This document shows, in pieces, positions 19,779 through 57,404 of a DNA stretch of 61,500 nt. Every line of letters begins with the position of its first letter. Within the stretch, counting starts at the first letter, position 1. The position numbers were made by a program, and so were the translations under genes. Source of the stretch: a virus (taxonomy: Duplodnaviria; Caudoviricetes); IMG/VR virus record IMGVR_UViG_3300037484_001144, positions 1-61,500 of that record. The stretch is one strand, 5' to 3'. Under the pieces are notes generated by a model. It saw only the letters and a list, made by a program, of their open reading frames with translations. It made no database searches and was not told the DNA's origin.

Positions 19779-19805
19779 CTTGCTTATCTCTTTGGCTAGG
19801 AGCGA

Positions 19806-29155: not shown

Positions 29156-29235
29156 TTGGCGGCGGCCCTACGCTTTCGGATATTACGTCCAGTGTTGTAG
29201 CAACGGAGGCGACCCGCTGGTTCGGGCGCGCAACG

Positions 29236-30258: not shown

Positions 30259-30288
30259 AATGAACATTTTGTATAAAAGGAAGCAAAT

Positions 30289-30804
30289 ATGAAATCACGC
30301 AGTACATTTCGATCCCATCCAGGGAAGTCACAGAAGGCATTCAAGCCGCCGATCATCACACGCGAACTTCCGCCCAGGATGCTGCAGGCCCCCAAAGGGT
30401 TGCAGATCATGTGCCCGTTTTGCCGTCCTGCCCATCCTATCGTTCCGGGGCAAGCATCGCCTTGCGGGACAGAATTGAAAGTCACAGCCGTGCAGACAGT
30501 CATTCCGGCGCGCACTGCCAACGATCAAGGCTTGCGGTGCATGAAGTGCCACGAGGTTGGCAAGGGTCCTATGGTTCGTTCCGGGGGAGGCTACGTCCAC
30601 CAGGAAGATTGCGTACCGGGGACAACCGTCCTGACCCAGCCTCCGCCTAATTCAAAGACAGCCGAGCGCGTCTACCGCCTGAAGCCAGGCTGGTGGAAAA
30701 AGTTCATGGAGAAACGCTACGGCAAAGCCCGGTGCGTCAAAGAGATCGACGTGGATGGCAATGAGACCGGGAAGATACTGAGTTATTTCTTCCAGAAGGT
30801 ATAG
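30289..30804 (+). CDS. Zn-finger hypothetical protein
   Basis: CPFC and CMKC; AAGGA RBS. Confidence 0.6.
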   Translation: MKSRSTFRSHPGKSQKAFKPPIITRELPPRMLQAPKGLQIMCPFCRPAHPIVPGQASPCGTELKVTAVQTVIPARTANDQGLRCMKCHEVGKGPMVRSGGGYVHQEDCVPGTTVLTQPPPNSKTAERVYRLKPGWWKKFMEKRYGKARCVKEIDVDGNETGKILSYFFQKV

Positions 30805-30810
30805 GCAGTC

Positions 30811-36808: not shown

Positions 36809-36857
36809 AACCGCTTCCCACGTGGACACAAGTCCGCGGGAAGCGGTTTTTTGTTTT
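36809..36857 (+). terminator. Terminator-like hairpin in the leader of the glycosylation operon
   Basis: aaccgcttccc...gggaagcggtt followed by ttttgtttt, ending about 15 bp before ATG 36873. Confidence 0.65.
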
Positions 36858-36872
36858 CATCGGAGGAAGCAT

Positions 36873-38912
36873 ATGGACATAAGGGAAGGATCCCTGTTCG
36901 TGACTGGAGGCGCAGGCACGCTCGGGAAGGCAATTGCCGCGCGCAGACAAAAAGATGGGTGGAAAGGCAGGTTGACGGTTTACAGCAGACATACTCATAT
37001 TCTGGAACAGATGAAGCGGGAATTCCCGGACGTTACGATCGTCCAGGGAGATATCCGCGATCCACTCACCCTCTACAATGCCATGGCGGGACACGACATT
37101 GTGATCCACGCCGGAGCGGTCAAGGTGATACCAGTCAGTGAAGAACAACCTATTGACACGATCCAGGTCAACGTGATGGGTTCTCTGAATGTCTGTGATG
37201 CGGCTGTGCGCGCGGGCGTGCGGGACGTGATCGCCATCTCCACGGACAAAGCGTGTTTGGAATGGCACTCTCCCGTCTTGTTAGAAGATGGAACTACAAT
37301 GCCCATTGGGGCGTTGGTGAGTTCTAAGACGAAGTGCGGAGTTAAGTCTTATGTTCAGTTTCCATTTGAAACCAAAATAGAGAGTCGCCCAATAACCGGG
37401 TGGTTCAAAAATAAGGTTGATGGAAGGAAAATGTATTCAGTTTCTTACGAGGGCGCGCCCAGTACCGGAAATGTTGACTATCACGTTTTGGTTACAGAAG
37501 ACCATAAGTTTCTAACGCAATCAGAAAACGGCTATCTTCACTGGACGCAGGCTAGGGATTTGGATAAGAGTGACGATCGGTTGGTAACCGCAGAATGGGA
37601 ATTTAATTACCTCCAAGAATCTCTTCTAGTTGGGACCATGCTTGGAGACGCAAGTATATCAAAAAACGAAGGAAACACACGTCCCAGGCTAAGAATGGCG
37701 CAAGCCAAAGGGGAAAGTGAATGGCTTCTTGTCAAAGCTAAGGCACTCTCGATTGAAAATGAAAGAATTCATGAGTGCAAGGGGATCGGAGAAACGCACC
37801 AAGACACCATTACTGCGTCTTCATCCGTATCTGCTAGTCTCCTAAAATACTTTGAAGCCTTTTATAAGCAACATAAAAAGGTGATTCCTTTTGAGTTGGT
37901 AGAAAAGGCTTTACAGAGCGTACATCGAAGACCTGTTTTTTTGGCATCGTGGTATCTAGACGATGGATGTACAACAGACAATTTAGCCAGAATCGCCACG
38001 CATGGTTTCACTCAAGAAGAGGTTATGAAACTTGCCGAGAAACTAACAAGTTGCGGGTTTGAGAGCTATAGCTATAAAGTGACCGTGGCCGGAAAAACAT
38101 ACTACGAACTTCGCTTTAATAAAACAGGCTCAAAGAGACTGTACCAAGAGATTGCTAAGTATGTTCCAGAATCGATGACTAGAAAAATTCCAGCTATCTA
38201 CAAAAAGCGGTATGACCCCGAGTTATGGAATCTTGGTGATCCTATTCAGTACAAAGCTAAACCAATCGTAAGGCTGGTCGGAAAAAACAAAACTGGTGAC
38301 GTGTACTGCATTGCCGTTGAACAAAGCGAGAATTTTATTGTAAATAACATGATCCTTCATAATTGTCATCCTGCCAATGCCTACGGCGCTACCAAGTACC
38401 TGATGGAGAAGATTTTCCAGGAATACTCCCGGAACTGGAAATCCCCAAAGTTTCACCTGGTCCGCTATGGGAACGTTCTCGATTCCAATGGCAGTGTCGT
38501 TGAGGCATGGAAGAACTCGCTCAAGCATGGGGACACGATCAAGATGACCAACCCGAACATGACGCGCTTCTGGATATCTCCCGCTCAGGCAGTGAACTAT
38601 GTTATCGGTGCACTGGAACAGGAAAGTGGCTGTATTTACATCCCAAAGATGAAAGCCCTTTCTCTGGGAAGGCTGCAGGAGTACGCAGTGGGAGAATGCA
38701 AGGTGGAGCGCGTGCCATTGCGCGCTGGAGAGAAGATCCACGAAACCCTGTTGACCCTGGAAGAGTCTCCATTCGCGCTGGATATGGGGACCTATTACCT
38801 GCTCTATCCCACAACCCACAAACGATTTAGCGCGGTAATCTCGCCATATTCTTCCAATGTTGCATTGGAATTGACGCGCGAGGAACTGGCGGAGTTGTTG
38901 GAAAACAAATAA
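36873..38912 (+). CDS. UDP-GlcNAc 4,6-dehydratase-like (PseB/CapD family) SDR, intein-containing
   Basis: TGGAGTLG, GDIRD, STDKA|CHP, YGATK, RYGNV, MTRFW, GEKIHE. Confidence 0.88.
   Translation: MDIREGSLFVTGGAGTLGKAIAARRQKDGWKGRLTVYSRHTHILEQMKREFPDVTIVQGDIRDPLTLYNAMAGHDIVIHAGAVKVIPVSEEQPIDTIQVNVMGSLNVCDAAVRAGVRDVIAISTDKACLEWHSPVLLEDGTTMPIGALVSSKTKCGVKSYVQFPFETKIESRPITGWFKNKVDGRKMYSVSYEGAPSTGNVDYHVLVTEDHKFLTQSENGYLHWTQARDLDKSDDRLVTAEWEFNYLQESLLVGTMLGDASISKNEGNTRPRLRMAQAKGESEWLLVKAKALSIENERIHECKGIGETHQDTITASSSVSASLLKYFEAFYKQHKKVIPFELVEKALQSVHRRPVFLASWYLDDGCTTDNLARIATHGFTQEEVMKLAEKLTSCGFESYSYKVTVAGKTYYELRFNKTGSKRLYQEIAKYVPESMTRKIPAIYKKRYDPELWNLGDPIQYKAKPIVRLVGKNKTGDVYCIAVEQSENFIVNNMILHNCHPANAYGATKYLMEKIFQEYSRNWKSPKFHLVRYGNVLDSNGSVVEAWKNSLKHGDTIKMTNPNMTRFWISPAQAVNYVIGALEQESGCIYIPKMKALSLGRLQEYAVGECKVERVPLRAGEKIHETLLTLEESPFALDMGTYYLLYPTTHKRFSAVISPYSSNVALELTREELAELLENK
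37254..38363 (+). mobile_element. Intein with LAGLIDADG endonuclease (370 aa) in the sugar dehydratase
   Basis: CLEWHSPVLLEDG, VTEDH, LLVGTMLGDA, WYLDDG, ILHN|C. Confidence 0.92.
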
Positions 38913-44332: not shown

Positions 44333-47149
44333 GTGTCAAGTATGTTGTCACCGAAAGGAACCATGATCAAAGTACACCTCTCTGATATTGGCACAGACGG
44401 CATACGCCGGGTGAGTGAGGCAATGATCAAACATCTGCCTCAGTTTGGCGTGGAGATCACGCGCCACCTGGGGGAAGCCGACATCATCGCCAACCACGCC
44501 GCCGCTACGGTCTGGCGCAAGGGCGTGCCGATGGTAGCGATCAATCACGGTCTGATGTGGAGCCGGCAGATGTGGGGCGACTCCTATCAGGAAGTGAATG
44601 AACAGGTCGTGGAAAGTATGTGCCGCGCGGTCGCTATTACAGCACCCTCCGAGTGGGTAGCGCGCGCAATTCGCAGAGGTGGATTTTTCTACCCGGAGGT
44701 GGTCTATCACGGGATAGACCACAACGAGTTCCAGCCAGGGACGAATGGCGGGTATGTGTTGTGGAACAAAGCGCGCGCCGACGCGGTCTCCAACCCCGAG
44801 GATGCCATGCGTGCCGCCCAGCTCCTGCCTGGTGTGCCTTTCTGGTCAACCTTCGGACGTGCGACCGGCAATGTCAAAGTGATCGACACCATGGATTATC
44901 TCAGCATGAAGAACGTGGTTGCCAATGCCGGGGTGTACCTATGTACCGCGCGTGAGACCTTTGGGATCGGCACGCTGGAAGCGATGGCCTGCGGGGTGCC
45001 GATTGCAGGATGGAATTGGGGCGGCCAGGCCGAGATCGTTCGGCAGGGCGAGACCGGATATCTGGCACATCCCGGTGATTTCAGAGCCCTGGCAGAGTGC
45101 ATCCAGCTATGCCTTGCGGAACGCGCCAGGCTTTCTGCCAACTGTCTGGAAGATGTGCGAAATCGCTGGAACTGGGAGCCGAGGATAGAGCAGTACGCAA
45201 ATATCTTCAAAAACGTTTACAGGGACTTTTACGAGACGGAAAGACCCAAAGTTTCAGTGATCCTGACCGCCTATAAATTAGATCAGTTCCTGCCCCTGGC
45301 GATCGAGAGTGTGCAGCGGCAAACCCTGACCGATTGGGAACTCCTGGTGATCGACGACGCCCCACTAGAATCCACCAAAAGCCTGGTGGAAACCTACGCA
45401 CGGGACGACAAGCGCATTGCCTACCGCCCGGTGGTCTCTAACCTGGGCTTGCCTGGCGCACGCAATTACGGATTCTATCTTGCGCGCGGTCGCTACATTC
45501 GCCACCTGGACGCCGATGATTTCCTGGCAGACAATGCGCTGGCCCTGGAAGCCGAAGCCCTGGATAACGACCCGAGCATTCATATTGCCTACGGTCATCT
45601 GGAAGTCGTTCGCGAGGATGGCAGCCGCGTGATGAAAGGGACGGAGCCTGTACGCAGTGACTGGCCGCCTACCCAGTTCCACTGGGAGGAACAGATGGCA
45701 CATCTGAACCAGCTCCCTTCCTGTGTCATGGCCCGCAGAGAGGTCTTCGAACTCTCTGGCGGGTACCGGGATCGGATGAAGCGGAACGAGGATGCCGAGT
45801 TCTGGTGCCGCGTGACGAGTGGAGGATTCCGAGCCAGGAAATTCACTCAGGCTGTAACGTATTTTCATAGGGAGCGCCCTGACAGCAAGGGAGCCATGGA
45901 ATGGAAGGAACAGGGCGGAGAGCCAGATTGGACCGCCTGGTTCCCCTGGCGTCTGGGGGCGGGGACCTATGGCGAGGCGCGTCACATCCTGCAGAAGCAA
46001 TCCGGGAAACATCCCCGCCCCCACCTGGTCCCCTTCGGGGCACAGGGGCGCCCGTGTGACAGGAAGTTCTGGTACATCCATGACTACAGCTACCCGGTGG
46101 TGTCCATCGTGGTCACGGTAGGACCCGGACATAAACCATTCCTGATCGATGCTCTGGATTCGCTTGTCGCTCAGACCTATCCTGACTGGGAATGTGTAGT
46201 TGTGAACGATACAGGTATTCCGTGGGAAAAGGATCTCCCGGGCGCGCCCTGGGCGGAAGTGGTGAACATGGAAGGCAATCAAGGGACATCCGCCGCGCGC
46301 AACGAAGGGTACAGGCACACCCGCGGGAGATTTATTGTCTGGATGGATGCGGACGACTTCTGGCTGCCCTGGTTCCTCGAAACGCTGGTGGCGCACGCCG
46401 AAAAGAACGACGGAGTGATCTTCTCTGATATGATCATGGATAAGGATGGCGAAAGAGAGAATTATCACTACCAGGGTTTCAATGCCGCCCGAATCCCAAA
46501 CACCATGCAGTATTCCGGATCTTCGATCCTAATCCCCCGCAAGATCGCGGAGGCAGTCATCGCCATGCAGGGGGGGTATGATGTGAATATCCCTGGGATG
46601 GAAGACTGGGATTACCAGATGGCAGTCCATCATCTGGGTTTCTGTGCTTACCATGTGGATGAACCCCTGTTTGTCTACCGTCTGCACACCTCCACCAAAC
46701 GCGAGAAAGATTATGCTAAAATTGACGCTATCCGTGAATACATGGATAAAAAGTGGAGTGATTACAGGCTAGGAAGGAAGGTACTGATGTGTGGTTGCAG
46801 TTCAACTCATAAGGTCAATAGTAAGCCCCAGAGCGCACTTTCCTCTTCGGGTTCGTTTGCCCCTCAGGAGGATGTGAACGCCGGGCAACTGGCTACTGAG
46901 ATGGTGCAGGTGGAGTATATGGGGCCGGATGAAGGAACATTCACGATCCTTTCACGCGTCGATCGCAGCGTTTCTTATCGTTTCGGAAACAACCCGGGGC
47001 ATAAAGTGCGCCCGGTCTTCCTGGGTGACGCCGAGCGGCTGGAAAGTCTGCGAGACTTGAACAACAAGCCTCTGTATATTCGGTTGACTTCTACTGCCCT
47101 GGACGCACGCGATGCCAACGCTTTCCTGGGCGTGCCGGTGGCGGGATGA
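44333..47149 (+). CDS. Multidomain glycosyltransferase (GT4 + GT2 + GT2 + C-terminal domain)
   Basis: ETFGIGTLEAMACG (GT4); two GT2 units with ARN and (L/M)DADD, and NEDAEFW / MEDWDY. Confidence 0.9.
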   Translation: MSSMLSPKGTMIKVHLSDIGTDGIRRVSEAMIKHLPQFGVEITRHLGEADIIANHAAATVWRKGVPMVAINHGLMWSRQMWGDSYQEVNEQVVESMCRAVAITAPSEWVARAIRRGGFFYPEVVYHGIDHNEFQPGTNGGYVLWNKARADAVSNPEDAMRAAQLLPGVPFWSTFGRATGNVKVIDTMDYLSMKNVVANAGVYLCTARETFGIGTLEAMACGVPIAGWNWGGQAEIVRQGETGYLAHPGDFRALAECIQLCLAERARLSANCLEDVRNRWNWEPRIEQYANIFKNVYRDFYETERPKVSVILTAYKLDQFLPLAIESVQRQTLTDWELLVIDDAPLESTKSLVETYARDDKRIAYRPVVSNLGLPGARNYGFYLARGRYIRHLDADDFLADNALALEAEALDNDPSIHIAYGHLEVVREDGSRVMKGTEPVRSDWPPTQFHWEEQMAHLNQLPSCVMARREVFELSGGYRDRMKRNEDAEFWCRVTSGGFRARKFTQAVTYFHRERPDSKGAMEWKEQGGEPDWTAWFPWRLGAGTYGEARHILQKQSGKHPRPHLVPFGAQGRPCDRKFWYIHDYSYPVVSIVVTVGPGHKPFLIDALDSLVAQTYPDWECVVVNDTGIPWEKDLPGAPWAEVVNMEGNQGTSAARNEGYRHTRGRFIVWMDADDFWLPWFLETLVAHAEKNDGVIFSDMIMDKDGERENYHYQGFNAARIPNTMQYSGSSILIPRKIAEAVIAMQGGYDVNIPGMEDWDYQMAVHHLGFCAYHVDEPLFVYRLHTSTKREKDYAKIDAIREYMDKKWSDYRLGRKVLMCGCSSTHKVNSKPQSALSSSGSFAPQEDVNAGQLATEMVQVEYMGPDEGTFTILSRVDRSVSYRFGNNPGHKVRPVFLGDAERLESLRDLNNKPLYIRLTSTALDARDANAFLGVPVAG

Positions 47150-47415
47150 GTATGAATACAATTACTGATCTTCCCACCAAAGAACAGATTCATGCCGCTG
47201 CAGAAATTGGAAGGAAGTTGTCTGAAATTTATGGCAGCGTTTCGGTTGCTTTTGAGAATTTCGGAAGAGCGTTTATGGGAGGGTTTTTTAAAGGTCTACA
47301 AAACTCGTTATCTGTTTCAGATCTCGAAAAACTATCAGTGAAATACAAGCGCAGGCAGAGATACCAGCGTAGATATGAACGAATTGGAAGGCAAATAAAA
47401 AAGGCAAGGCAATAA
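47146..47415 (+). CDS. Hypothetical protein
   Basis: ATGA coupling; lower GC. Confidence 0.5.
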   Translation: MSMNTITDLPTKEQIHAAAEIGRKLSEIYGSVSVAFENFGRAFMGGFFKGLQNSLSVSDLEKLSVKYKRRQRYQRRYERIGRQIKKARQ

Positions 47416-47726
47416 TGAATCCTATTGTTACCGAGAGAACAAACAAAACCAACGTGATAGCTTATGTGCAGGGAAATAAAGATGGTTATGAGATGGGTGA
47501 AACCGAATCAATTGCCATATGCAAGTTATTGATTCGGTTACAAGGAAAGATGATACGCACGTGGAGCGGTGCGTTCATCCTGGCTACATTTGCATGGTTG
47601 AGTGTTTTTGTTGAAATGTGGCGTATGCTAAATGGACTTCTCCAGAGCAGCCCAATGGCGTGGGCTTTCCTGGTGTTTTTCTTTCTGGTGGCGTTGTTTT
47701 CCAGCAGCCTGGCAATGAGGAAGTAA
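47415..47726 (+). CDS. Membrane hypothetical protein
   Basis: TAATG coupling; two TM segments. Confidence 0.5.
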   Translation: MNPIVTERTNKTNVIAYVQGNKDGYEMGETESIAICKLLIRLQGKMIRTWSGAFILATFAWLSVFVEMWRMLNGLLQSSPMAWAFLVFFFLVALFSSSLAMRK

Positions 47727-48046
47727 TGACTTTTATCGTCTTCTCTCTCTTTGCTCTTGCAACCTGGCGCCTGGCTTCCATGCTGGTGCGCGAGAAGGGA
47801 CCGTGGGGTCTGTTTGTGCGTATCCGCGCGTTGGTTGGGATTGAGCACGATGACCAGGGCGTTCCGGTCCAGATTCCTGATAATGTTCTGGCAGGAATTT
47901 TGTCGTGTCTGTTTTGTTGTTCCATGTGGGTAGGTTTTGGGTGGTTCCTGTTCTTCCTGGGCACTCCCCTGCTGGCAGAAAAAATCGCCACGGTCTTTGC
48001 GTTCTCAGCCGGGGCGATTCTACTGGATCGATGGATGGGAAATTAG
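47726..48046 (+). CDS. DUF1360-like membrane protein
   Basis: LATWRL....EKGP....IR...LSCLFCCSMW. Confidence 0.7.
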   Translation: MTFIVFSLFALATWRLASMLVREKGPWGLFVRIRALVGIEHDDQGVPVQIPDNVLAGILSCLFCCSMWVGFGWFLFFLGTPLLAEKIATVFAFSAGAILLDRWMGN

Positions 48047-48072
48047 AGATTTTTTGGGGAGTATAATTATCC

Positions 48073-48354
48073 TTGAATGAACTCCCGTGGCGGTGCCATG
48101 CCTGCGGAAACGAGCAGATGGTGAATCTGGATCAATTGGAGAGCTGGCCCCTTGACAAATTGACTACCGCGCGGGGATTTACGTGTGAGAAGTGCCGACA
48201 TCGGGAAGCCATTTCTTACTCCACGCCTCTGCTCAAAGAGGCATTACAGCGATTGACCCAGATGCGCCCGGGGCACCGGAAGTTTCCTTATTACTTCCGA
48301 AAGGCACTCTTGCGCGCGGAGTCGATCAATCGGAGGAACAATGGCACGCGCTGA
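48073..48354 (+). CDS. Zn-ribbon protein
   Basis: CHAC...CEKC. Confidence 0.55.
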   Translation: MNELPWRCHACGNEQMVNLDQLESWPLDKLTTARGFTCEKCRHREAISYSTPLLKEALQRLTQMRPGHRKFPYYFRKALLRAESINRRNNGTR

Positions 48355-49564
48355 CACTTATACATGGTTACCGTTGGATGAGTGGGCGATGATCATGGGA
48401 ATTAATCCCGTCCACTGGAATCAACTGTCGTCCCCAATTTTCAATAACAACGTATGCGGAGAGATCTTCTTCCAGCAAGATTGGCACCATTCTGACCGGA
48501 TCGGTCGGGACACCGTTGCGCGCGCCATCCGTGAAGCTGAACTGGAAATGGCGCTCGAGGCGGGATTCAATCTCCTTCCCGACTGGACCTCCGACGAACG
48601 GCTCTACTACGCTCAACCCGCAGTCCCTGGTTCTTACCATCTAACCGGTGCCAACCCGCGCGGGATGCTCAATTCCATAGAGTTGCGCAAAGGTCATATT
48701 ATTTCAGGCGGCCAGCGTGCCAAGGTTCTGATTCAATCTGGCGCGGTCGTTGTGCGTTCGGACGTGGATGGGGATACATTCCAGGAAACCGCCACCGTGA
48801 CAGTACCTGTCACGTTCACGGATACCAATCAGATCCGGATCTACTACCCCACCAAGAGCGGCGCAGACACATGGGAAGTCCGTCCCATTACCGTGGCAAT
48901 CTCCGGTGGATTCGCAACGATCCAGTTCAAGATCTGGCAACTGGTTGCAGCCAGTCAAATGGATCGCCTGGACGCCCAGCCCCTGGATGCCGACCTCGCT
49001 GCTTCCTATGAGACGACTGTGGATGTCTATCAGGTCTACAACGACCCGAGTGTACAGGTATCTTTCGTATGGGAGAATAACGGTCCTCTGGGTGACTGCT
49101 GTGGTTCCTGTATGGCCTGCACGCTTGGAACTCAGACAGGATGTTTCCATAACCGAGAGGATAGGCTAGGAATTATCGTCCCTGCTCCTGCCGCATGGGA
49201 CGCTCAGAACAGTGAATTCACTGCACAGGAATGGAGTGCCTGCCGCGCGCCAGATCAATTGTATGTAAATTACTATTCAGGCTGGAGAGACTGGTCAGTC
49301 GCACGTCCCTATGTGGAACTCTCCCCCTATTGGAAAACGGCGATCGCTTACTATGCAGCTTCCAAATTGGACCGCCCGGTCTGTGGGTGCTCAAACATTT
49401 CTCAATTCGTAGACAAATGGCGCAGGGATGCCGCGTTCAGTAGTCAGGAGGAAGGTGGCTGGACTATGACCCCCGAGATGGCATCCAATCGTTTGGGGAC
49501 GACTATGGGGGCTCTGTATGCCTACCGTGCAATCCACAAGGCCGGAATCAGGGTGACAAAATAA
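48341..49564 (+). CDS. Head-tail adaptor/neck structural protein
   Basis: GGAGG RBS; AIREAE, YYSG and AIAYYA resemble gp6/gp15-like adaptors; lies between head and tail genes. Confidence 0.55.
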   Translation: MARADTYTWLPLDEWAMIMGINPVHWNQLSSPIFNNNVCGEIFFQQDWHHSDRIGRDTVARAIREAELEMALEAGFNLLPDWTSDERLYYAQPAVPGSYHLTGANPRGMLNSIELRKGHIISGGQRAKVLIQSGAVVVRSDVDGDTFQETATVTVPVTFTDTNQIRIYYPTKSGADTWEVRPITVAISGGFATIQFKIWQLVAASQMDRLDAQPLDADLAASYETTVDVYQVYNDPSVQVSFVWENNGPLGDCCGSCMACTLGTQTGCFHNREDRLGIIVPAPAAWDAQNSEFTAQEWSACRAPDQLYVNYYSGWRDWSVARPYVELSPYWKTAIAYYAASKLDRPVCGCSNISQFVDKWRRDAAFSSQEEGGWTMTPEMASNRLGTTMGALYAYRAIHKAGIRVTK

Positions 49565-49795
49565 TCAAGAACTGATTGCGAACTTGCAAACTGGACAGAA
49601 GCGCAGATCATTCTCGATAACAAGATCGCCGTGCCCTTCTGGGAATTGAGTGGGTAATTCTATCTCAACACTTTGTTGGGCGGCTTCATGGAGCGCGGCT
49701 GTAACATTGACAAACAATATAGATATTTCTACCAATGAGCCGCCATGCTTGGATTGATATATTTTTATCGCCTCTAATAGTTCTTCATTTTCCAT
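49565..49795 (-). CDS. Last cassette ORF (hypothetical, C-terminal CxxC)
   Basis: GAGGAG RBS after the core site GTTAGGC; contains a decayed attC left end at 49675-49684. Confidence 0.6.
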   Translation of the reverse strand: MENEELLEAIKIYQSKHGGSLVEISILFVNVTAALHEAAQQSVEIELPTQFPEGHGDLVIENDLRFCPVCKFAISS

Positions 49796-49823
49796 TTGCA
49801 ATTCTCCTCGTTGAGCGATAGCC

Positions 49824-49951
49824 GCCTAACGGCTTACATTACTGGCGGGTGGGTTTTCCGCAGAGACGGCAATACTCACCCATACGATCATTGGCAGGCT
49901 CTGGAATTTTGCAGGTGCATACCCACCCGTCCGGTGCATGTTTTGTTAGGC
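49824..49951 (-). repeat. attC site 1
   Basis: GCCTAAC-AAAAC-ATGCACCGGAC...GCCAGTAATGT-AAGCC-GTTAGGC. Confidence 0.85.
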
Positions 49952-50060
49952 GTTTACCGCATTTTGGACAATTGCCCTTGATGGCTTTGTAATACCTTGA
50001 TTGGCAGCGCGGACAAACGCTCAGGTTTTTGGGCAGGGTGTGATTGTGTGGATTTAGCAT
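49839..50060 (-). CDS. Cassette ORF, Cys-rich Zn-ribbon protein
   Basis: AAGGAG RBS; CxxC pairs; reads through attC1. Confidence 0.6.
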   Translation of the reverse strand: MLNPHNHTLPKNLSVCPRCQSRYYKAIKGNCPKCGKRLTKHAPDGWVCTCKIPEPANDRMGEYCRLCGKPTRQ

Positions 50061-50075
50061 TTAGCTCCTTCAAGC

Positions 50076-50201
50076 GCCTAACGGTTTGCGTTACCCGCCG
50101 CCGAATGTAGCGGACAGGTCATCTGCAAAAAGCGATAATTGCAGGGGATAAGACGCGGGCGGCTGAACGCCGAAGGCGGTCGGGTGCACGCGTTGTTGGG
50201 C
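50076..50201 (-). repeat. attC site 2
   Basis: GCCCAAC-AACGC-GTGCACCCGAC...GCGGGTAACGC-AAACC-GTTAGGC. Confidence 0.88.
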
Positions 50202-50477
50202 AGCCCACATGGACACGCGCGGCGCATAATTTTTAGAATATGATTCAACGCGCTTTAGAGCTTCGGTAACAGCTTCTTGCCGCGTTGTATACATGCGCCC
50301 CTTTGACAATGGTTCAGCCATTCCGCCGCCTGCATACTGGACACTAGCTGATTGCACCCAGGCATTATCGCCAATCTGTAACAATCGGATGATGACGCAC
50401 GCTTTGCCTGATGTGTACTCAATGTGCTCTGCGTGCGTCTCTGGATATGACCCGTGTTTATTTGGCTTTGGAAACAT
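50091..50477 (-). CDS. Cassette ORF, hypothetical
   Basis: AAGGAG RBS, start MFPKP; reads through attC2. Confidence 0.65.
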   Translation of the reverse strand: MFPKPNKHGSYPETHAEHIEYTSGKACVIIRLLQIGDNAWVQSASVQYAGGGMAEPLSKGRMYTTRQEAVTEALKRVESYSKNYAPRVSMWAAQQRVHPTAFGVQPPASYPLQLSLFADDLSATFGGG

Positions 50478-50491
50478 TGCGCTCCTTGGCT

Positions 50492-50582
50492 GCCCAACGG
50501 CTTGCGTTACCCGCTTGGGGGTTGCTCGCCATTGCCTGATTTCGCCACCGTACCCCCAAGTCGGGTGCACGCTGTGTTAGGT
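50492..50582 (-). repeat. attC site 3
   Basis: ACCTAAC-ACAGC-GTGCACCCGAC...GCGGGTAACGC-AAGCC-GTTGGGC. Confidence 0.9.
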
Positions 50583-50725
50583 GCGCTCAATGGATGCGCT
50601 TCTACACCTGGGGGGAGATGATCGTTACATACATTGCGAATCATCAAGCCGCCCCATGAGACAGCCATCCAGCGCGCCTTTTTGCGACACTGTGTATTTG
50701 CGTGGACAAAGACTTCACATCTCAT
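50507..50725 (-). CDS. Cassette ORF, small Cys/His protein
   Basis: ATG 5 nt after the core site GTTAGGT; reads through attC3. Confidence 0.55.
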   Translation of the reverse strand: MRCEVFVHANTQCRKKARWMAVSWGGLMIRNVCNDHLPPGVEAHPLSAPNTACTRLGGTVAKSGNGEQPPSG

Positions 50726-50730
50726 ATAGC

Positions 50731-50820
50731 ACCTAACGGCTTGCGTTACCCGCGTGGGGCACGCGAACCCGTCCAAAAATTACACAGCCTGCCCCACGTC
50801 GGGTGCACGCTGTGTTAGCC
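50731..50820 (-). repeat. attC site 4
   Basis: GGCTAAC-ACAGC-GTGCACCCGAC...GCGGGTAACGC-AAGCC-GTTAGGT. Confidence 0.9.
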
Positions 50821-51094
50821 GCGTTCTATAGTGCTCGAAACGGCTTTGATGACCAACGCGCCAAAACTTCAACGCGGCTTCGGCTGACTTCCAGCGACAT
50901 CGTTTATAAAATGCGCTGGTTCTACTGGATGGGATAGGCTCAATTTCCCATTCGCCTTGTTTATTGAGACAGCAACCTTTTTCACGGATAGCCCATAAAT
51001 CAGAGCCATCAATTTGCTTGACACATTCAAGGCGGACATCAATCAAATCTTTCCAGCCATCTAACTCGTAGACCAACACTTTCAGATTTTCCAT
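50780..51094 (-). CDS. Cassette ORF, conserved phage-type hypothetical
   Basis: AAGGAG RBS; WAIR...CLNKQGEWEIEPIPSSR...FYKRCRW. Confidence 0.7.
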   Translation of the reverse strand: MENLKVLVYELDGWKDLIDVRLECVKQIDGSDLWAIREKGCCLNKQGEWEIEPIPSSRTSAFYKRCRWKSAEAALKFWRVGHQSRFEHYRTRLTQRAPDVGQAV

Positions 51095-51116
51095 GACACT
51101 CCTTTTGCAAGTAAGC

Positions 51117-51282
51117 GGCTAACGGGGCGCGAAATGAGCAGCGAGCGGGGCGTTTAGCATTGCCCCGCCAAAGTTATGGCACAGTCCCTTGCGTGGAGTT
51201 CGGGCATAATGGCATCACCCTCACCGCATGTGCACAAGGGGCGATGCTGCCCCGCTTCGTCTGCTCCAATTCGCAGTTGTGC
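51117..51282 (-). repeat. attC site 5
   Basis: GCACAAC-TGCGA-ATTGGAGCAGAC...GCTGCTCATTTCGCGCCCC-GTTAGCC. Confidence 0.75.
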
Positions 51283-51468
51283 GTCGCGGGTCAAGCAAGT
51301 CATCAAGAAATATAATTCAGCATTGCAGTCTGGACACCTGAGGGCGTAATCTGGTTTATTAGCACAGCAGAAGTCCAGCACAGTTACACGGTTTACAGCG
51401 TCACACTGCGGGCAATTGAAGATTATTCTTTCACCGTCAAGAGTATTTTCCTGGGCAATCAATAGCAT
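51154..51468 (-). CDS. Cassette ORF, Zn-ribbon protein
   Basis: AAAGGA RBS; CPQC and CPDC; reads into attC5. Confidence 0.6.
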   Translation of the reverse strand: MLLIAQENTLDGERIIFNCPQCDAVNRVTVLDFCCANKPDYALRCPDCNAELYFLMTCLTRDAQLRIGADEAGQHRPLCTCGEGDAIMPELHARDCAITLAGQC

Positions 51469-51565
51469 CTCGTTTTTCCTTTCGTTGAGCACGATTGCGA
51501 ATTGCATTTCGCGCCCCGTTGTGCGTCCAGCGAGTGGGGCGGCGTACTCGCCGTCTCCGAGCGAC

Positions 51566-51685
51566 GCACAACGGTGGGCTTTACCAGCGGCGGGCTGGAT
51601 GTAGATCATTTGCCAGCAAAGCCCAACCATAACTAATGATTTTTCGCGGGCGCGTACCCGCCGTCTGGTGCAAGCAGTGTTGGGC
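51566..51685 (-). repeat. attC site 6
   Basis: GCCCAAC-ACTGC-TTGCACCAGAC...GCTGGTAAAGC-CCACC-GTTGTGC. Confidence 0.85.
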
Positions 51686-51827
51686 AGAAATGTTCCTGCG
51701 TAACACAGAGCCATTGCCCGACTTTACCCCGCATGGCGTTTTCGGATGCTTCATCGAGCGATTGTGCTTCGACAATTTCAACGGAGTGCTTGCCTTCTGG
51801 GGAAATTAACCTTACAGAGATTTGCAT
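51633..51827 (-). CDS. Cassette ORF, hypothetical
   Basis: AAAGG RBS, start MQISVRL; ends inside attC6. Confidence 0.55.
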   Translation of the reverse strand: MQISVRLISPEGKHSVEIVEAQSLDEASENAMRGKVGQWLCVTQEHFCPTLLAPDGGYAPAKNH

Positions 51828-51839
51828 ATTTGCCTTTCT

Positions 51840-51969
51840 GCCCAACGGATTACATTAGCGGCAGTTGGGCGGGAACAGTGTCCGCTTCTGCGGTGGATAA
51901 GATTTCAGGCTGTGGTAACGCCTGCGGCGTGGGAGAATCCCCAACTGTCCGCTGCATGTGGTGTTCGGC
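51840..51969 (-). repeat. attC site 7
   Basis: GCCGAAC-ACCAC-ATGCAGCGGAC...GCCGCTAATGT-AATCC-GTTGGGC. Confidence 0.85.
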
Positions 51970-52302
51970 GGCGTTTGCTTTACGGCAATCCCATCCCGCC
52001 GCTTCTGCTTCCGCCTTTGCTTCAAGAACCCAGGCAAATAATTTCTTGTTCGAGAAATTATCACCCATCAATTTCATGTACTTGGTTCCCAAAAATGCTT
52101 TGATGTAAGCATCCCAGAGTAGATACAAATGTTGTTTTACTTCGTCGGTTGGGTATCCAGCCAACCCAGCGCCATCTACGCGGGCAAAATATCGAACCAT
52201 CCATAGCAATCGCTCAGGGTCATCTGCTCCATCGGTTGCATGGTGCGGAGGATTGGCGCGCCATGCGGATGCACATTGTTTGATATAGGCTTCGCAGTCC
52301 AT
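51850..52302 (-). CDS. First ORF of the cassette array, hypothetical
   Basis: GGGAG RBS; reads through attC7. Confidence 0.65.
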   Translation of the reverse strand: MDCEAYIKQCASAWRANPPHHATDGADDPERLLWMVRYFARVDGAGLAGYPTDEVKQHLYLLWDAYIKAFLGTKYMKLMGDNFSNKKLFAWVLEAKAEAEAAGWDCRKANAAEHHMQRTVGDSPTPQALPQPEILSTAEADTVPAQLPLM

Positions 52303-52376
52303 TTTTCTCCCATCAACAAGCCGCGTAAGGGAGGTAGTCGGTCAAATCTGGGCGGTAAATATAATTCATGTAATTG

Positions 52377-52405
52377 ATTGTACAACCATACACATAAACA
52401 GTCAA
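52377..52405 (-). promoter_or_regulatory. Pc-like sigma70 promoter facing the cassette array
   Basis: TTGACT-17-TACAAT; the -10 overlaps GGTTGTACAA. Confidence 0.75.
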
Positions 52406-52460
52406 GGGGAAAATAATAGTATAATTAGCAATAGTGTCATTTGTCATATATAGGAGAAGC

Positions 52461-52745
52461 ATGGAAATTTGCGAGCAGGTGATCGGTGGCAGGAAGTATG
52501 TGGGGTATTCAGACGGGAACGGCAACGTCATTCTCAAAGGCCCGCCTGAGGGACTGGTGGATGACTTGAAGCTACCTGAACCCCTCGCCACCACCCTGCA
52601 CAATGTCTTATACGCGCGTGGGTTACTCACCTACGACGATGTGATGAAGAGATCGAAAGAACTGATCGGCGCGCTCCAGGAGGCTCTGAATCTGGACGTG
52701 CAAAGATTGCAAGAAGCGTATTTCAAGTACGCCCAGGAGGTCTAA
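52461..52745 (+). CDS. Hypothetical tail-operon protein
   Basis: AGGAG RBS; abuts the next gene. Confidence 0.65.
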   Translation: MEICEQVIGGRKYVGYSDGNGNVILKGPPEGLVDDLKLPEPLATTLHNVLYARGLLTYDDVMKRSKELIGALQEALNLDVQRLQEAYFKYAQEV

Positions 52746-52746
52746 G

Positions 52747-54252
52747 ATGACGAGCCAAAACATAGCGTTGAATGCCATCAACTCGCGGGTCTGGTATGTG
52801 GAAGGTGGAGTCCACCCCACTCGCTCGCCCCAGTTCCTGGCGTTGGGAAAGTTCTCCACCGACCCCAGCAAGCCTTTCGGTGAATCCACCAAAGTTACCG
52901 CCCCGGACCCCAACAGTTTCAACCGGGATATGCAGGTAGGGACAGTGGAAGGCGCCGACGAGCGCGCAACACTCGGGATCGGTATTCGATCCACTGCCCA
53001 GAAGTCCATCGTCCTGGACTTGGCTCTCAAGCAGTGCCGAGTGGATGTCTTCGCCTTGCTCGGGAAATGCGGCAATCCCCAGGACTTCGACGAAGGCGGA
53101 GAGAAATGGGTATATTTCCCGGATGGCAAGATCAGCCAGCACGCCTATGAAAATTTCGGCGCGTATGGTCGGGATGAAAACAACCCGATGAACGAGAACC
53201 TGGACATGACATCAGAGAGCTACTGGGAGTATCTGTACATGAGCCAGGAAGCGGTGGGCGGAGCCTACACCACGCGCCAGATCTACACCGTGGATATCTA
53301 CACAGGCAACGAGTGCGAGAATTGTCCAGACCCATGCGACCGAGTTCTTGCGACCATGGCGGGCGTAGGGACAACCCCTGGAACCAAACCGGTTCTGCTC
53401 TACTCCGGGGACGGCGCAGAGACTTTCTCCACAAATATTATCGCAACCCTGCACTCCAACGAAGATGTGGCGGATGGAGTTGTAGTGGGCGACGATATTG
53501 TTTACATCTCCTACACGTCAAATTCCCTGCACTGGACCGACATCGAACTTCTGTACGATGGAACAAACACCTGGTCAGAGGTGATCAGTGGGTTTGTGGC
53601 TGGTAAGGGGCCGCACGCGATCACAGCCCCGGATGCCCGTCATATCTGGATCGTTGGAGATGGCGGCTACATCTACTTCTCCTCGAACCACAAGATCGGG
53701 GTGAATGTGCAGGATGCCGGCGTAGCAACCACACAGCACCTGCGGGCTGTCCATGGTCTGGATACCAAGAATGTTCTAACGGTGGGTGATTCCAATGCAG
53801 TTGTGTTCACCAAGAATGGCGGAGTGAGCTGGCAGAGTGTGACCGGACCGGCAGTGGGTATCAACCTGGGTGCCTGCTGGATGTGGGACGAAACCACCTG
53901 GTTTGTGGGTGAAGGCGCAGGCGGAACTGGGAAACTGTGGTTGACAACCAACCGCGGCAATTCCTGGACACAGGTCGGGCTGCCTTCTTCCTACGTCCGC
54001 ATCTACAAGATCCAATTTGTATCCGACGCCGAAGGGTATTTGCTGGCTTCGGATGGTTCCAGGACCTATGTTTTGCGAACGATCACAGCCGGGAACGGCT
54101 GGCAGGTAATGCCGCAGGGCAAGAAAGCCGTGGCAGTGAATAATACCTTCCTGACTGACCTGGCGGTTTGTTCGAAGACAGCCAACACGGCCTATGCGGG
54201 CGGGTTGGCTGCAAATGGCACAGCCGGAGTCATCCTGAAGATGGCTGGATAA
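52747..54252 (+). CDS. Putative major tail protein with C-terminal Ycf48/BNR-like propeller
   Basis: Upstream of the chaperones and tape measure; TKNGGVSW, TTNRGNSW and TITAGNGW repeats. Confidence 0.6.
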   Translation: MTSQNIALNAINSRVWYVEGGVHPTRSPQFLALGKFSTDPSKPFGESTKVTAPDPNSFNRDMQVGTVEGADERATLGIGIRSTAQKSIVLDLALKQCRVDVFALLGKCGNPQDFDEGGEKWVYFPDGKISQHAYENFGAYGRDENNPMNENLDMTSESYWEYLYMSQEAVGGAYTTRQIYTVDIYTGNECENCPDPCDRVLATMAGVGTTPGTKPVLLYSGDGAETFSTNIIATLHSNEDVADGVVVGDDIVYISYTSNSLHWTDIELLYDGTNTWSEVISGFVAGKGPHAITAPDARHIWIVGDGGYIYFSSNHKIGVNVQDAGVATTQHLRAVHGLDTKNVLTVGDSNAVVFTKNGGVSWQSVTGPAVGINLGACWMWDETTWFVGEGAGGTGKLWLTTNRGNSWTQVGLPSSYVRIYKIQFVSDAEGYLLASDGSRTYVLRTITAGNGWQVMPQGKKAVAVNNTFLTDLAVCSKTANTAYAGGLAANGTAGVILKMAG

Positions 54253-54273
54253 CTTAGATAGGAGGAAGCAACA

Positions 54274-54834
54274 ATGGCACGTAAAGGGAAAGTAGATAGT
54301 GACTTTCAAACCGCGCAGGCGATCGACCGTGCGCTTGTCTCACAGGATGACACCATAACTTTATCTACGGGTGTCGTCCTGCGCGGCAGGAAGACCAACC
54401 CGGTCATTCTGGTGCAGGTCATGGCAGCCTTTCCGCGCCCTGACCCCCCCATGGTCTTCATGCCTGCTTACGGGCGCGAGATGGAAAACCCAGACGACCC
54501 GAACTATGTGGAAAAGCTCCAGTCCTGGAAGCTGGAATCCGCCAACCACGTGGTAACTGCCATGATCAGCCTGGGGACAGAACTGGTTTCTTCTCCAAAA
54601 GGCTTGAGCCACCCAGATAAGGATGACTGGCTGGCGGATTACGCCCTTCTGGACATGCCCATGCACCCCCAACATAAGCAGTGGCGCTACTTGATCTGGG
54701 TCAAGTTTCGGGCGATCGGGAACGAAAACGACATGCAACTCATTCAGGAAGTGGTGGGCAGGCTGAACGGTGTGCGCGAGAGCACCGTGAAGTCTGCCGA
54801 GAATTTTCCTGGGAGCGACCCAGAAGCAGGGTGA
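54274..54834 (+). CDS. Tail assembly chaperone (gpG-like)
   Basis: Position between the tail protein and TMP; AATTTTC near the 3' end. Confidence 0.6.
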   Translation: MARKGKVDSDFQTAQAIDRALVSQDDTITLSTGVVLRGRKTNPVILVQVMAAFPRPDPPMVFMPAYGREMENPDDPNYVEKLQSWKLESANHVVTAMISLGTELVSSPKGLSHPDKDDWLADYALLDMPMHPQHKQWRYLIWVKFRAIGNENDMQLIQEVVGRLNGVRESTVKSAENFPGSDPEAG

Positions 54835-55108
54835 CCGGGAAGTCATCGTCACTGATGTAGAGCTGGAGAACGGGATTTCAGCGGGAATCAATCTGCGGAA
54901 GCTGGGAGTGGACCTGGTGCCCGTCTTTGAAGAACATAGCGTGCGCCTCGAGCGCGGGGTTTCGATCAAGGACTGGATGGATATGGACGAAACGGAGAAA
55001 GCCCTGATCGTTGCCAGGCGGCGCATCGCCACTCAAATGCGAAACCTCCAGACGGAGGCGGAAATCCGCAAGGCAAAACAGGACGCGAATAAACATGGGC
55101 GCAAATGA
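54806..55108 (+). CDS. Tail assembly chaperone extension (gpT-like frame)
   Basis: Frame open from 54791, overlapping the end of the upstream gene; W..M...E motif. Confidence 0.5.
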   Translation, partial: FLGATQKQGDREVIVTDVELENGISAGINLRKLGVDLVPVFEEHSVRLERGVSIKDWMDMDETEKALIVARRRIATQMRNLQTEAEIRKAKQDANKHGRK

Positions 55109-57404
55109 TCTGCCGCTCGCCGGCGTAGAAGCAATCGTCGAAGGTTTGAGTCCCTTCCAGGGAGCCATGAGGAAGATGAACTCAAGCCTTAGCGCGCTGA
55201 TTCCGGGCACTACCCTGCTCCAGCGCGCCTTCACTTCCGTCTGGGATACTGTGGCAGGCTTCGGGCGCGAGGTTCTGAACGTGGCAGAGGTTGCGCTCGG
55301 GAAGATTCTGGGGGACGCCATCGAGTGGGTGGTTGGAAAAATTGGGGAGTTGATCTCTGCAACCATTGACGCGGGTTCGGAGTTCCAAACCCTGGAACTC
55401 CGCTTGCAGCGTCTGAACTTCAATACACTGATCGAATCAGGGGAAGATGCTACCAAGGCTGGGGCGGAAGCACTCAAGATGACCAAGGAGCAACTGGACT
55501 GGCTGCAGAAGCTGGCCGCCCAGACTCCGTATGACAATGCGGATATTTCAAAAACGTACACCCTGGCACGTTCCTATGGATTCGTGGATCAGAAAGCCAA
55601 AGTGTTGACGGAAGATATCGTCAACTTTGCCTCGGGTATGGGGCTGGGGAACACCGAGATTGAGAGAATCATCATCAACTTCGGGCAGATGGTGCAGCAG
55701 GGCAAGGTCACCCAGCGGGAAATGAACGATCTGGCGCGCGGTGCGTTTGTGCCAGTCAATGACATTCTCAAGCGCATGTCCGAGAATACCGGAGTCGCCG
55801 CAGACGAGATGGACGACTTCCGCAAGACTGCTGAGAGTGTTCCTGCATTCATGCAGGCTTTCTCGGATGTGGTGAAGGAGCGGTTCTCCGGGGCAGCCGA
55901 GCAGATGGCTAAGACCTTCAAAGCTGCCTCTGATAATGCCCAGGATGTGGTGAAGTCCATCGGCGGGCTGAACGTTGTCAAGCCGATCCTGGACGTGATC
56001 GGTGCTCGGGTAGCTGCCTTTACTGCTTCCTTTACGGATAATCCCGAACGCTGGGACCGGATGGTGAATGCCGCGAAGAGGGTAGGCACGGCTCTTTCAG
56101 GAATTGTAGATGGTCTCTTTGACCTGCTCCCTACTTCCGAATCGCTGGCGGACAGCGCAGTGAGGGCAATTGAAGGGATTGCTACCTGGCTGGAAGAACG
56201 CGGACCAGGGATCAAAACGTTCTTCAAGGAACTTGGAGAGATCGTAGGCGGAGTAGCAGACAGGATCAAGCTGGCCCTCTCTGGGGGACAGGAAAAACCA
56301 GCCGGACAACCGACGAACTCATGGGACTTCCTGCCTGGTGGTTCCAAGGCTGGAAAACAAGAGGATGCTCCGTTCGGAGAAGACTTTCTGGGCGCCGTGC
56401 AGAAGGTTGCTGATTTTATCAACAACACCCTAATCCCTGCGTTTGTAAAAGTTCAGGTCTGGTTCGAGGTGAACAAACCCCTGATCGACGAGTTTTGGAA
56501 GTCGGTCGGAGATATTATCTCGGAAGTGTTCCAGGACATTACCAGCCAACCTGGGAAGGAAGGGGGTGGCGGCGGGATTCTGGATACGATCACAAGGTTC
56601 ATGAAGTTCGTGATCGACAACAAGGATGAAATCGCAAAATGGGTGGAGATCCTGTGGAGTGTCTTTGTCGTCTGGCAGGTACTTTCGACCCTATGGTCGA
56701 TTTTGTTGGGTATTCTGATTCCGATCGCGGCGTTCTTTATCGGGTTGTCTGGTATTCTAGCCGTATTTGGAATTACGATCTCTGGCCCGGTTCTGCTTGC
56801 AATTGGCGCCCTGATTTTGGCGGTGGGCGGACTGTTCCTGGCTTTCCAGACAAACTTCATGGGAATTCGAGATTGGGCGACCAATCTGTGGACACAACTC
56901 GTAACAACCTTTACCAATATCACTACCCGAATCGAGCAATTTGGAAGGGATACATCTGCAAGTTTACAGAAACTCGTTACCGCCGTACAAGGAATCGACT
57001 GGAAAAAACTTGGACTCTGGATTATGCAGGGTCTCGCCAATGGCATTACCGCTGGTGGAAGTATTCTAATTAGCACCATGGTGTCTGCGGCCATGAAGGC
57101 ATACAAGGCAGCTAAAGACTCCCTCGGAATCAAGTCCCCTTCCAAGCTCTTCGAAGGGATCGGTATGTGGACCATGGAGGGTTTCGCTCAGGGCATCGAG
57201 AAGGCGGCTGGGCTGGCGGTGGGAGCCATGCAAAGTGCCGTGGGCCAGGTAGCGGCTCCGGCAATCTCGTCCATGTCTGCGGCGCAGGCTGGAGGCAACA
57301 CTATTACCAACAACCGGACTGCCAATTTGACAGTGAACACCAGCGCACCAGTGGAACCCATCCTGCAGGATTTCAATATGATGGAAAGCCTGATGGGAGC
57401 ATAA
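55095..57404 (+). CDS. Tape measure protein
   Basis: 769 aa helical; LAAQTPY, GQM...GKV...E, TM segment, LGIKSPSK.F..IG. Confidence 0.9.
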   Translation: MGANDLPLAGVEAIVEGLSPFQGAMRKMNSSLSALIPGTTLLQRAFTSVWDTVAGFGREVLNVAEVALGKILGDAIEWVVGKIGELISATIDAGSEFQTLELRLQRLNFNTLIESGEDATKAGAEALKMTKEQLDWLQKLAAQTPYDNADISKTYTLARSYGFVDQKAKVLTEDIVNFASGMGLGNTEIERIIINFGQMVQQGKVTQREMNDLARGAFVPVNDILKRMSENTGVAADEMDDFRKTAESVPAFMQAFSDVVKERFSGAAEQMAKTFKAASDNAQDVVKSIGGLNVVKPILDVIGARVAAFTASFTDNPERWDRMVNAAKRVGTALSGIVDGLFDLLPTSESLADSAVRAIEGIATWLEERGPGIKTFFKELGEIVGGVADRIKLALSGGQEKPAGQPTNSWDFLPGGSKAGKQEDAPFGEDFLGAVQKVADFINNTLIPAFVKVQVWFEVNKPLIDEFWKSVGDIISEVFQDITSQPGKEGGGGGILDTITRFMKFVIDNKDEIAKWVEILWSVFVVWQVLSTLWSILLGILIPIAAFFIGLSGILAVFGITISGPVLLAIGALILAVGGLFLAFQTNFMGIRDWATNLWTQLVTTFTNITTRIEQFGRDTSASLQKLVTAVQGIDWKKLGLWIMQGLANGITAGGSILISTMVSAAMKAYKAAKDSLGIKSPSKLFEGIGMWTMEGFAQGIEKAAGLAVGAMQSAVGQVAAPAISSMSAAQAGGNTITNNRTANLTVNTSAPVEPILQDFNMMESLMGA

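Follow-up and report, generated by a model that had tools for sequence, protein, structure and literature searches.

An integron-type cassette array without an integron integrase in the genome of an uncultured tailed phage

Results

Location and layout of the array

The stretch of DNA analyzed here, called the window throughout, is 61,500 bases long and is the whole of IMG/VR virus record IMGVR_UViG_3300037484_001144 (Duplodnaviria; Caudoviricetes). The feature under study is an array of integron-type gene cassettes on its minus strand, at positions 49565 to 52405, where a promoter is followed by eight co-oriented small open reading frames (ORFs) and seven attC-type imperfect palindromes of 90 to 166 nucleotides (nt). 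The seven sites span 2.15 kb, and no gene for an integron integrase (intI) is found in the whole genome. The record has direct repeats at its termini and is rated 100 for completeness by CheckV, and profile searches identified genes for a large terminase, DNA methyltransferases, a tape measure protein (55011 to 57404), and a Dit-like distal tail protein. Because the terminase, tape measure, and Dit-like genes are present, the record belongs to a tailed phage, and it is a complete genome of one.

The array lies just upstream of the tail genes, between a gene of 407 amino acids (aa) (48341 to 49564) and a pair of genes of 103 and 501 aa (52434 to 54252), and it runs antisense among these structural-module genes. 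The same flanking genes are syntenic in related loci, in line with the antisense placement in the neck-tail region that an original prediction, made from the letters of the window alone, had given to the array. An assembly chimera was considered and rejected because both flanks are syntenic in seven related loci and because one of these relatives, the independent contig L206, has an array at the same place. A megablast search of window positions 46000 to 56000 against 50,697 phage records returned zero matches.

Structure of the attC sites

Measured from the first base of R'' to the last base of R', the minus-strand sites are attC0 (51969 to 51840, 130 nt), attC1 (51685 to 51566, 120 nt), attC2 (51282 to 51117, 166 nt), attC3 (50820 to 50731, 90 nt), attC4 (50582 to 50492, 91 nt), attC5 (50201 to 50076, 126 nt), and attC6 (49951 to 49824, 128 nt). 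All seven have the R''-L''...L'-R' palindrome with ...AAC and GTT... cores. In six of them the left arm reads ...AAC, 5 nt, nTGCAnCnGAC and the right arm reads GCnnGTAAnGC, 5 nt, GTT; the divergent attC2 shares this arrangement but differs in its L boxes. Five sites have GTTRGGY-like R' boxes, and the remaining two have GTTGTGC and GTTAGCC. The left arm exceeds the right by two bases, which in the top-strand folds and the consensus structure appear as a GC-versus-A bulge plus one unpaired A, with an unpaired central spacer of 3 nt versus 5 nt. We take the bulge and the unpaired base to be the canonical extrahelical G and T of attC.

Folded as single strands, the sites have z scores of -1.9 to -4.6 relative to shuffled sequences. 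When 16 attC sites found by a covariance model (R1, described below) in the window and four relatives were aligned, 94.9% of cells were paired and 16 of 24 pairs had compensatory changes, percentages that are inflated to the extent that both the model and the pair-count alignment were fitted to one structure. None of 500 shuffles reached the pairing, compensatory-change, or covariation score, and slid controls paired at 26 to 38%.

The conserved L' box (GGTAACGC or GCTAATGT) contains a TAA that is the stop codon of the cassette ORFs O0 (51850 to 51852), C4 (50507 to 50509), C5 (50091 to 50093), and C6 (49839 to 49841), so these four genes read through most of their own attC sites. A repeat search also found, at 51505 to 51528 on the minus strand, a 24-nt perfect inverted copy of the L'-spacer-R' junction of the would-be cassette-2 circle, which gives cassette 2 a second, bulge-free left arm enclosing its whole ORF. 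A weak plus-strand match to R1 lies nearby (51398 to 51524; expect value [E] of 0.11).

Cassette ends and the worn ends of the array

The six internal cassettes have ends that are complementary to each other over 12, 12, 9, 9, 11, and 8 nt. For comparison, R'' and R' of the same site match over a mean of 4.1 nt and other combinations over a mean of 3.9 nt, and the observed pairing of ends is the single best of 720 permutations. Complementarity of this kind is a hallmark of cassette circles having joined at G|TT, in which each R' box is a hybrid of two cassettes.

Both ends of the array depart from this pattern. At the left end of the array, as read on its own strand, the 5' end of O0 (GTTGATGGG) is not complementary to its own R''. 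At the other end, the last cassette, C7, begins with a cassette-type start, GTTAGGCGGC, that matches its R'' at 9 of 10 positions. Its attC has decayed to an R'' with the sequence GCCCAAC (49681 to 49675) and gives no R1 match; because only R'' is retained, the array ends in a decayed site. No attC follows C7, whose stop codon abuts that of the 407-aa phage gene, and its homologues P0007 and P0008 are conserved only as far as the EAAQQ encoded by R''. The array is thus one of eight cassettes, worn at both ends.

Much of what had been read from the sequence at the outset held up under this scrutiny. Sequence reading and motif location recover the seven minus-strand imperfect palindromes of 90 to 166 bp; the two extra bases reported for the left arm are the GC/A bulge and the unpaired A; the complementarity of 8 to 12 nt between cassette ends survives permutation; and the identification of the palindromes as attC sites is borne out by R1, the cassette-end signature, and the compensatory changes. 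The stated one-to-one alternation of sites with ORFs is right for seven of each and overlooked the eighth cassette, C7, with its decayed site.

A model built from Anaerolineales integrons finds the sites

Rfam gave no family at its gathering score in the window, which means merely that nothing passed the threshold for any family that Rfam holds. The 19-nt right arm of attC3 to attC5, used as a search pattern, matched 58 viral stretches in IMG/VR and at least 120 genome stretches. By record title, 91 of the 120 listed genome stretches were Chloroflexota, mostly Anaerolineales, and 10 were unlabelled. In four of five such genomes, IntI scored above the TIGR02249 cut-off of 265 bits (353 to 447 bits). 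Genome G001 has 19 to 20 arm matches in the 20 kb upstream of intI, on the strand opposite intI, and none in the 17 kb downstream; G003 has 9 to 10 in the 10.5 kb upstream of intI and none on the other side. One-sided arrays adjoining intI are the architecture of integrons.

Covariance model R1 was built solely from 28 attC sites beside the true integron integrases of these two Anaerolineales genomes. With filters off, it found six of the seven window sites, on the minus strand only, and the match ends coincided with the coordinates that had been set by hand. Scores ranged from E = 3.1e-22 for attC3 (80.2 bits) through 2.7e-21 for attC0 (77 bits), 9.2e-21 for attC4 (75.3 bits), 3.7e-17 for attC1 (63.4 bits), and 2.6e-16 for attC6 (60.5 bits) to 1.5e-15 for attC5 (58 bits). 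The next-best match was the reverse strand of attC4 (E = 0.016), and nothing else fell below an E value of 0.01 in 61.5 kb. Although R1 missed attC2, we accept it as a site because it folds with a z score of -3.5, because its cassette ends are complementary over 12 nt, and because similarity to another viral array, L051, starts exactly at the GTT of its R' box. The original prediction had suggested a search with the attC covariance model, in whose place R1 was used, and a search for intI with matching attC sites in the predicted host, which are present in G001 and G003 of the likely host order. The window sites are attC sites of an integron family of Anaerolineales.

Applied to the 120 host loci, the same model found 314 sites, spread over 100 of the loci. 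Lengths of 127 to 132 nt account for 94% of 235 host sites versus 25% of 71 viral-locus sites, a comparison drawn from a biased sample in which sites were defined by an expression and loci were chosen by one 19-nt pattern. The viral-locus sites have a median length of 111 nt and a range of 59 to 195 nt. The window, with sites of 90 to 166 nt, lacks the uniform sites of a sedentary chromosomal integron fragment, and this heterogeneity speaks against a block copy of a single chromosomal array.

The phage has no integron integrase of its own

Searched over its full 61.5 kb, the record gives a best TIGR02249 score of 25.1 bits, where the cut-off is 265; the ORF concerned scores 31.2 bits when searched as a protein. 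It is the only tyrosine recombinase in the window (15411 to 16367), a Xer-like protein with 74.9 bits on PF00589 and 91.5 bits on XerC. The absence of an integron integrase, another element of the original prediction, therefore stands at 25 to 31 bits against 265. Because the phage has no integron integrase, any further gain, loss, or reordering of cassettes needs IntI in trans, and we infer that the host chromosome or a co-resident element would be its source.

Such sources are common in the likely host order. Of 301 genomes sampled from the order of G001, 99 had an IntI above the cut-off. Among 50 viral records with this attC type that were searched, five encoded IntI above the cut-off, all of them 'linear' records (G028, which is the record of locus L024, G009, G036, G039, and G042), and none of the 11 with terminal repeats did. 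In G028, genes for terminase, portal, major head, and tape measure proteins lie at 0.5 to 15 kb, and intI lies at 27869 to 28816, beside an array at about 29000 to 31700; the record may hold a complete integron carried by a phage, or a prophage with a host integron as its neighbor.

A related phage carries other cassettes at the same spot

Searches with the flanking proteins led to eleven related loci (L002, L193 to L198, and L206 to L209). Between the homologues of the 407-aa and 103-aa genes, the array is absent from L002, L195, and L196; the junction holds a small plus-strand ORF in L002 and L198 and only a hairpin in L193 and L194. By these comparisons, the junction (window 49565 to 52433) is a variable spot, occupied by promoter and array in the window and L206.

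The closest relative, L206, is 80% identical in the protein of the 407-aa gene. By blastn, its flanks align with those of the window at 72% and 70% nt identity, and between them only the attC arms match. The variable region bounded by this homology is window 49553 to 52376 on the minus strand, with the flank homology running up to the -10 box at 52377. Behind the same promoter, L206 has three attC sites (E of 1e-15 to 3e-22) and three cassettes unrelated to those of the window, with ends that, read from the printed sequence, are complementary over 11, 10, and 11 nt. In L206 (2274 and 1393), the small native gene that follows the promoter contains the GTT with which the first cassette begins. 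Insertion into that gene by IntI, at a secondary site, would be compatible with a frame that stays open for 19 codons past the split codon after the G of the last attC, but an open frame of this length has a probability of about 40% by chance and is not evidence.

Two further relatives, L193 and L194, have attC arrays between a 142-aa and a 93-aa gene, behind a homologous promoter (TTGACA-17-TACAAT with GTTGTACAAT). The small first ORF after the promoter is 73% identical over 33 aa between L206 and L193, and the same gene is present in L194. The locus L198 has two attC sites at a third position, on the opposite strand. The records of L193 and L194, which are the two closest complete relatives, each hold a second attC array elsewhere (L027 and L057); the window has one array only.

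None of the eight ORFs of the window had a match in any of the related loci. The original prediction had asked whether relatives carry different cassettes at this locus and had named identical content in diverged relatives as the pattern that would speak against it. In L206, three other cassettes stand between the same flanks and behind the same promoter; L002, L195, and L196 have no array; and the absence of any match to the eight ORFs means that identical content is not what the relatives show.

A single cassette can be followed into an unrelated array. C3 with attC3 is 95% identical in nt over 403 bp, and 97% in aa, to positions 6847 to 7249 of L051, a viral contig of 8.8 kb that has an array of its own and otherwise no similarity to the window. 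The identity begins on the left at the CC-GTT of the recombination point and continues rightward through attC3 to about 12 nt into the R'-derived start of the next cassette. Together with the cassettes of L206, it lends comparative support to the claim of a shufflable platform made at the outset. C2 has a 41% identical homologue directly after an attC in an array (L073) of a Chloroflexi metagenome-assembled genome (MAG).

Promoter and cassette genes

The promoter that had been predicted to face the array, TTGACT-17-TACAAT, is of the sigma-70 type and is an exact match at 52405 to 52377 on the minus strand, accompanied by the clade motif GGTTGTACAATC. With one mismatch allowed, the promoter pattern has 2 matches in the window versus 0.21 expected by chance. 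The 12-mer GGTTGTACAATC recurs at 19768 to 19779, upstream of the methyltransferase operon, so that the promoters at 19750 to 19779 and 52376 to 52405 have TTGAC-17-TACAAT and the 12-mer in common; it is possible that the repeated 12-mer acts as a common operator. Looser copies of the motif lie at 3783 to 3813 and at 16400, 16614, 19312, and 36138. Homologous promoters head the arrays of L206, L193, and L194, and because the 12-mer also stands upstream of the methyltransferase operon, the array promoter is an element of the phage lineage. It is followed by an 18-codon leader ORF (52313 to 52369, minus strand) whose start aligns with that of a small Zn-ribbon gene after the promoter in L206 and L193.

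The eight co-oriented cassette ORFs encode 64 to 150 aa, and seven were judged to have Shine-Dalgarno-like sequences by reading the upstream bases. On the minus strand they are O0 (51850 to 52302, 150 aa), in which the last 40 codons pass through attC0; C1 (51633 to 51827, 64 aa), in a cassette with ends complementary over 12 nt; C2 (51154 to 51468, 104 aa), with weak zinc-ribbon matches below Pfam cut-offs; C3 (50780 to 51094, 104 aa), with its near-identical copy in L051; C4 (50507 to 50725, 72 aa), placed from the ORF list and upstream bases; C5 (50091 to 50477, 128 aa), with a C-terminal tail encoded by attC5; C6 (49839 to 50060, 73 aa), with weak double zinc-ribbon matches, again below Pfam cut-offs; and C7 (49565 to 49795, 76 aa), with the decayed attC. 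The O0 homologues P0002 and P0003 retain MQRTVG and PAQLPLM, the translated L'' and L' arms, and because these attC-encoded residues are kept, O0 is itself a cassette gene. The tblastn matches of C5 are confined to its attC-encoded tail.

None of the eight ORFs matched above the cut-offs of Pfam, PHROGs, NCBIfam, or PADLOC. The ESM Atlas gave O0 and C3 only scores below 0.9 and unnamed clusters, and a viral scan with P0002 found no relative.

Elsewhere in the phage genome, an 868-aa terminase (25107 to 27713) matches the terminase profile only at residues 652 to 862 and has an additional region with a weak match to the thymidylate synthase family, and a 696-aa epimerase-like protein (36822 to 38912) has a LAGLIDADG homing-endonuclease match at residues 266 to 449, a pattern that suggests inteins in both.

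Discussion

With at least two attC sites close together and no intI, the array is a cluster of attC sites lacking integron integrases (CALIN), defined, as in section 2.1 of Qi et al. 2023 (PMC9892861), by two or more attC sites with no integron integrase nearby; it lacks the adjoining intI of a complete integron. We put the probability of the full explanation at roughly 85%: a CALIN in a complete tailed-phage genome, with cassettes from an Anaerolineales (Chloroflexota) pool and IntI acting in trans. Under this explanation, each cassette would once have been a circle, drawn from the cassette pool of Anaerolineales integrons and joined at G|TT by an integron integrase. Eight promoterless cassettes (O0 and C1 to C7) would have come to stand head to tail in a variable spot of the tail-gene region, antisense to their neighbors. 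The integrase, supplied in trans, would have inserted cassettes into replicating phage DNA and could still exchange them there, the phage promoter would transcribe all eight genes, and the cargo may have been kept because it benefits the phage.

Several observations weigh against this explanation or parts of it. No attI-like site is recognizable at the left end of the array, and the head-of-array junctions have no sequence conserved among the window, L206, L193, and L194; we know of no general model for attI sites against which to compare them. The end of O0 that fails to pair and the decayed site of C7 have been described, and part of the present array could be frozen. The differences between the window and L206 could be explained by whole-array exchange through homologous recombination in the shared flanks, with no action of IntI on the phage. 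attC2 escaped R1, and a search for siblings of its arms that allowed up to three substitutions found none in the fetched loci, which total about 1.4 Mb; the pairing percentages of the other sites carry the inflation noted above. As for the host, 19 of the 120 listed genome stretches are labelled as other phyla, mostly short MAG contigs, and the probable assignment is drawn from the attC type alone. The 501-aa phage protein had only one weak match in the 301 genomes of the likely host order, and prophages therefore offer no independent link to a host. Recombination on the phage DNA, past or present, is likewise deduced from sequence alone.

Some of these same points favor the main rival, which we consider unlikely: that a piece of a host array or of some other cassette array entered the phage a single time, through illegitimate recombination or through homologous recombination in the flanks, that it is now ordinary phage DNA on which no integrase acts, and that relatives swap whole modules. 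A phage without IntI, a left junction without a recognizable attI-like site, a last attC that has decayed, and junctions between platform and first cassette that differ among the window, L206, L193, and L194 are all what a frozen relic would leave behind, and a module with a homologous promoter at different loci is what module transfer predicts. A relic of this kind fits poorly with attC lengths that are heterogeneous, unlike those of the sampled chromosomal arrays, and with the single cassette common to L051 and bounded at GTT. Six attC sites are moreover intact, with bulges and compensatory changes kept, a persistence that would be unexpected without selection on structure.

The enzyme could also be sought within the phage, its Xer-like tyrosine recombinase (15411 to 16367) acting on the sites as part of a self-contained system. 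The protein is a tyrosine recombinase by its PF00589 and XerC scores (74.9 and 91.5 bits), and homologues occur in the array-bearing relatives G030 and G051, but it reaches only 25 to 31 bits of the 265 required by the IntI model, lies 33 kb away from the array, and has no homologue in G055, a complete, terminally repeated relative with attC sites. Since bacterial sites next to true IntI belong to this attC family too, we regard a self-contained system as very improbable. Least credible of all is that the hairpins are another class of repeat resembling attC, such as repetitive extragenic palindromic (REP)-like elements, terminators, or miniature inverted-repeat transposable elements (MITEs). 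The repeat is very abundant in Anaerolineales, and many of the fetched 8-kb stretches have a single exact match to the pattern; against this stand the one-sided arrays adjoining intI in G001 and G003, model matches that form co-oriented arrays alternating with ORFs, and the cassette-end signature.

Phage CALINs have been published (PMC9892861), and the array is therefore of a kind already known, a well-supported further case with added comparative evidence from relatives. Among 10,705 cultured or NCBI phage genomes, that survey reported 17 CALINs, each with at least two attC sites; integron parts were found in 21 phages, an association termed infrequent, and five of six phage attC sites tested recombined with IntI1. 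The published clusters resemble the window in having attC sites without an integrase, co-oriented cassettes, and cargo mostly of unknown function. The window differs in its seven intact sites, in an attC type traced to IntI-adjacent arrays of a likely host order, and in relatives that carry other cassettes behind a conserved phage promoter. In the main text of the survey, the terms 'Chloroflex', 'closely related', and 'in trans' are absent and 'metagenom' occurs in the reference list only, and no paper in the literature searched dealt with attC arrays of uncultured phages or of Chloroflexota phages.

The array can also be set beside two kinds of bacterial integron. In the chromosomal integrons of the Anaerolineales genomes G001 and G003, the attC arms AAC-ACAGC-GTGCACCCGAC ... 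GCGGGTAACGC-AAGCC-GTT are identical to those of attC3 and attC4, and each ORF is followed by its attC in the same order as in the phage. Those long arrays adjoin intI and hold some 20 sites in 20 kb, uniform in length at about 130 nt, whereas the phage array has no intI, sites of 90 to 166 nt, and a phage promoter. In mobile integrons of the class 1 type, the array is short, the attC sites vary in length and sequence, and a single promoter upstream reads the promoterless cassettes. The window is like them in its short array, varied attC sites, and single upstream promoter, but it has no intI, no recognizable attI, and no transposon backbone; its carrier is a phage, and its promoter has a phage-lineage motif in common with the phage's methyltransferase operon. 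A possible route for cassettes into a genome without attI, such as that of a phage, is offered by IntI-catalyzed insertion outside att sites, as described in a preprint (bioRxiv 10.1101/2022.09.11.507474). The outer junctions of L206 fit such an insertion at a GTT in a small native gene, to an extent that does not exceed chance.

The comparison with relatives adds to what was known of phage arrays by documenting cassette turnover behind a shared promoter, with different cassettes at one spot. The scale also exceeds that of the published survey of cultured phages as far as it can be compared, in that one strict 19-nt motif alone led to 58 viral stretches, 43 of which have at least two co-oriented right arms by a simple expression. 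In 59 viral loci (514 kb, comprising these 58 and L002, which has none), R1 found 244 sites at E values of 1e-5 or lower. By its attC type an uncultured phage is tied to a likely host order, which makes attC typing usable as a marker for host prediction. More speculatively, the eight cargo genes without a known family are candidates for functions in phage-host conflict.

We tentatively propose, at somewhat less than even odds, that a phage lineage probably infecting Anaerolineales keeps an integrase-less platform with exchangeable cassettes from a largely phage-circulating pool. The platform would consist of a conserved phage promoter and leader, with gain, loss, and exchange of cassettes behind them; IntI would come in trans from the host or from elements that carry it; and the attC sites of the pool would be shorter and more varied than those of host chromosomal arrays. 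If this is true, phages of a non-proteobacterial phylum would regularly use integron cassettes as an accessory-gene system, and such arrays would not be rare accidents, a view supported by the 58 viral stretches, the 244 model matches in 59 loci, and the terminal repeats of 11 of the 50 records searched.

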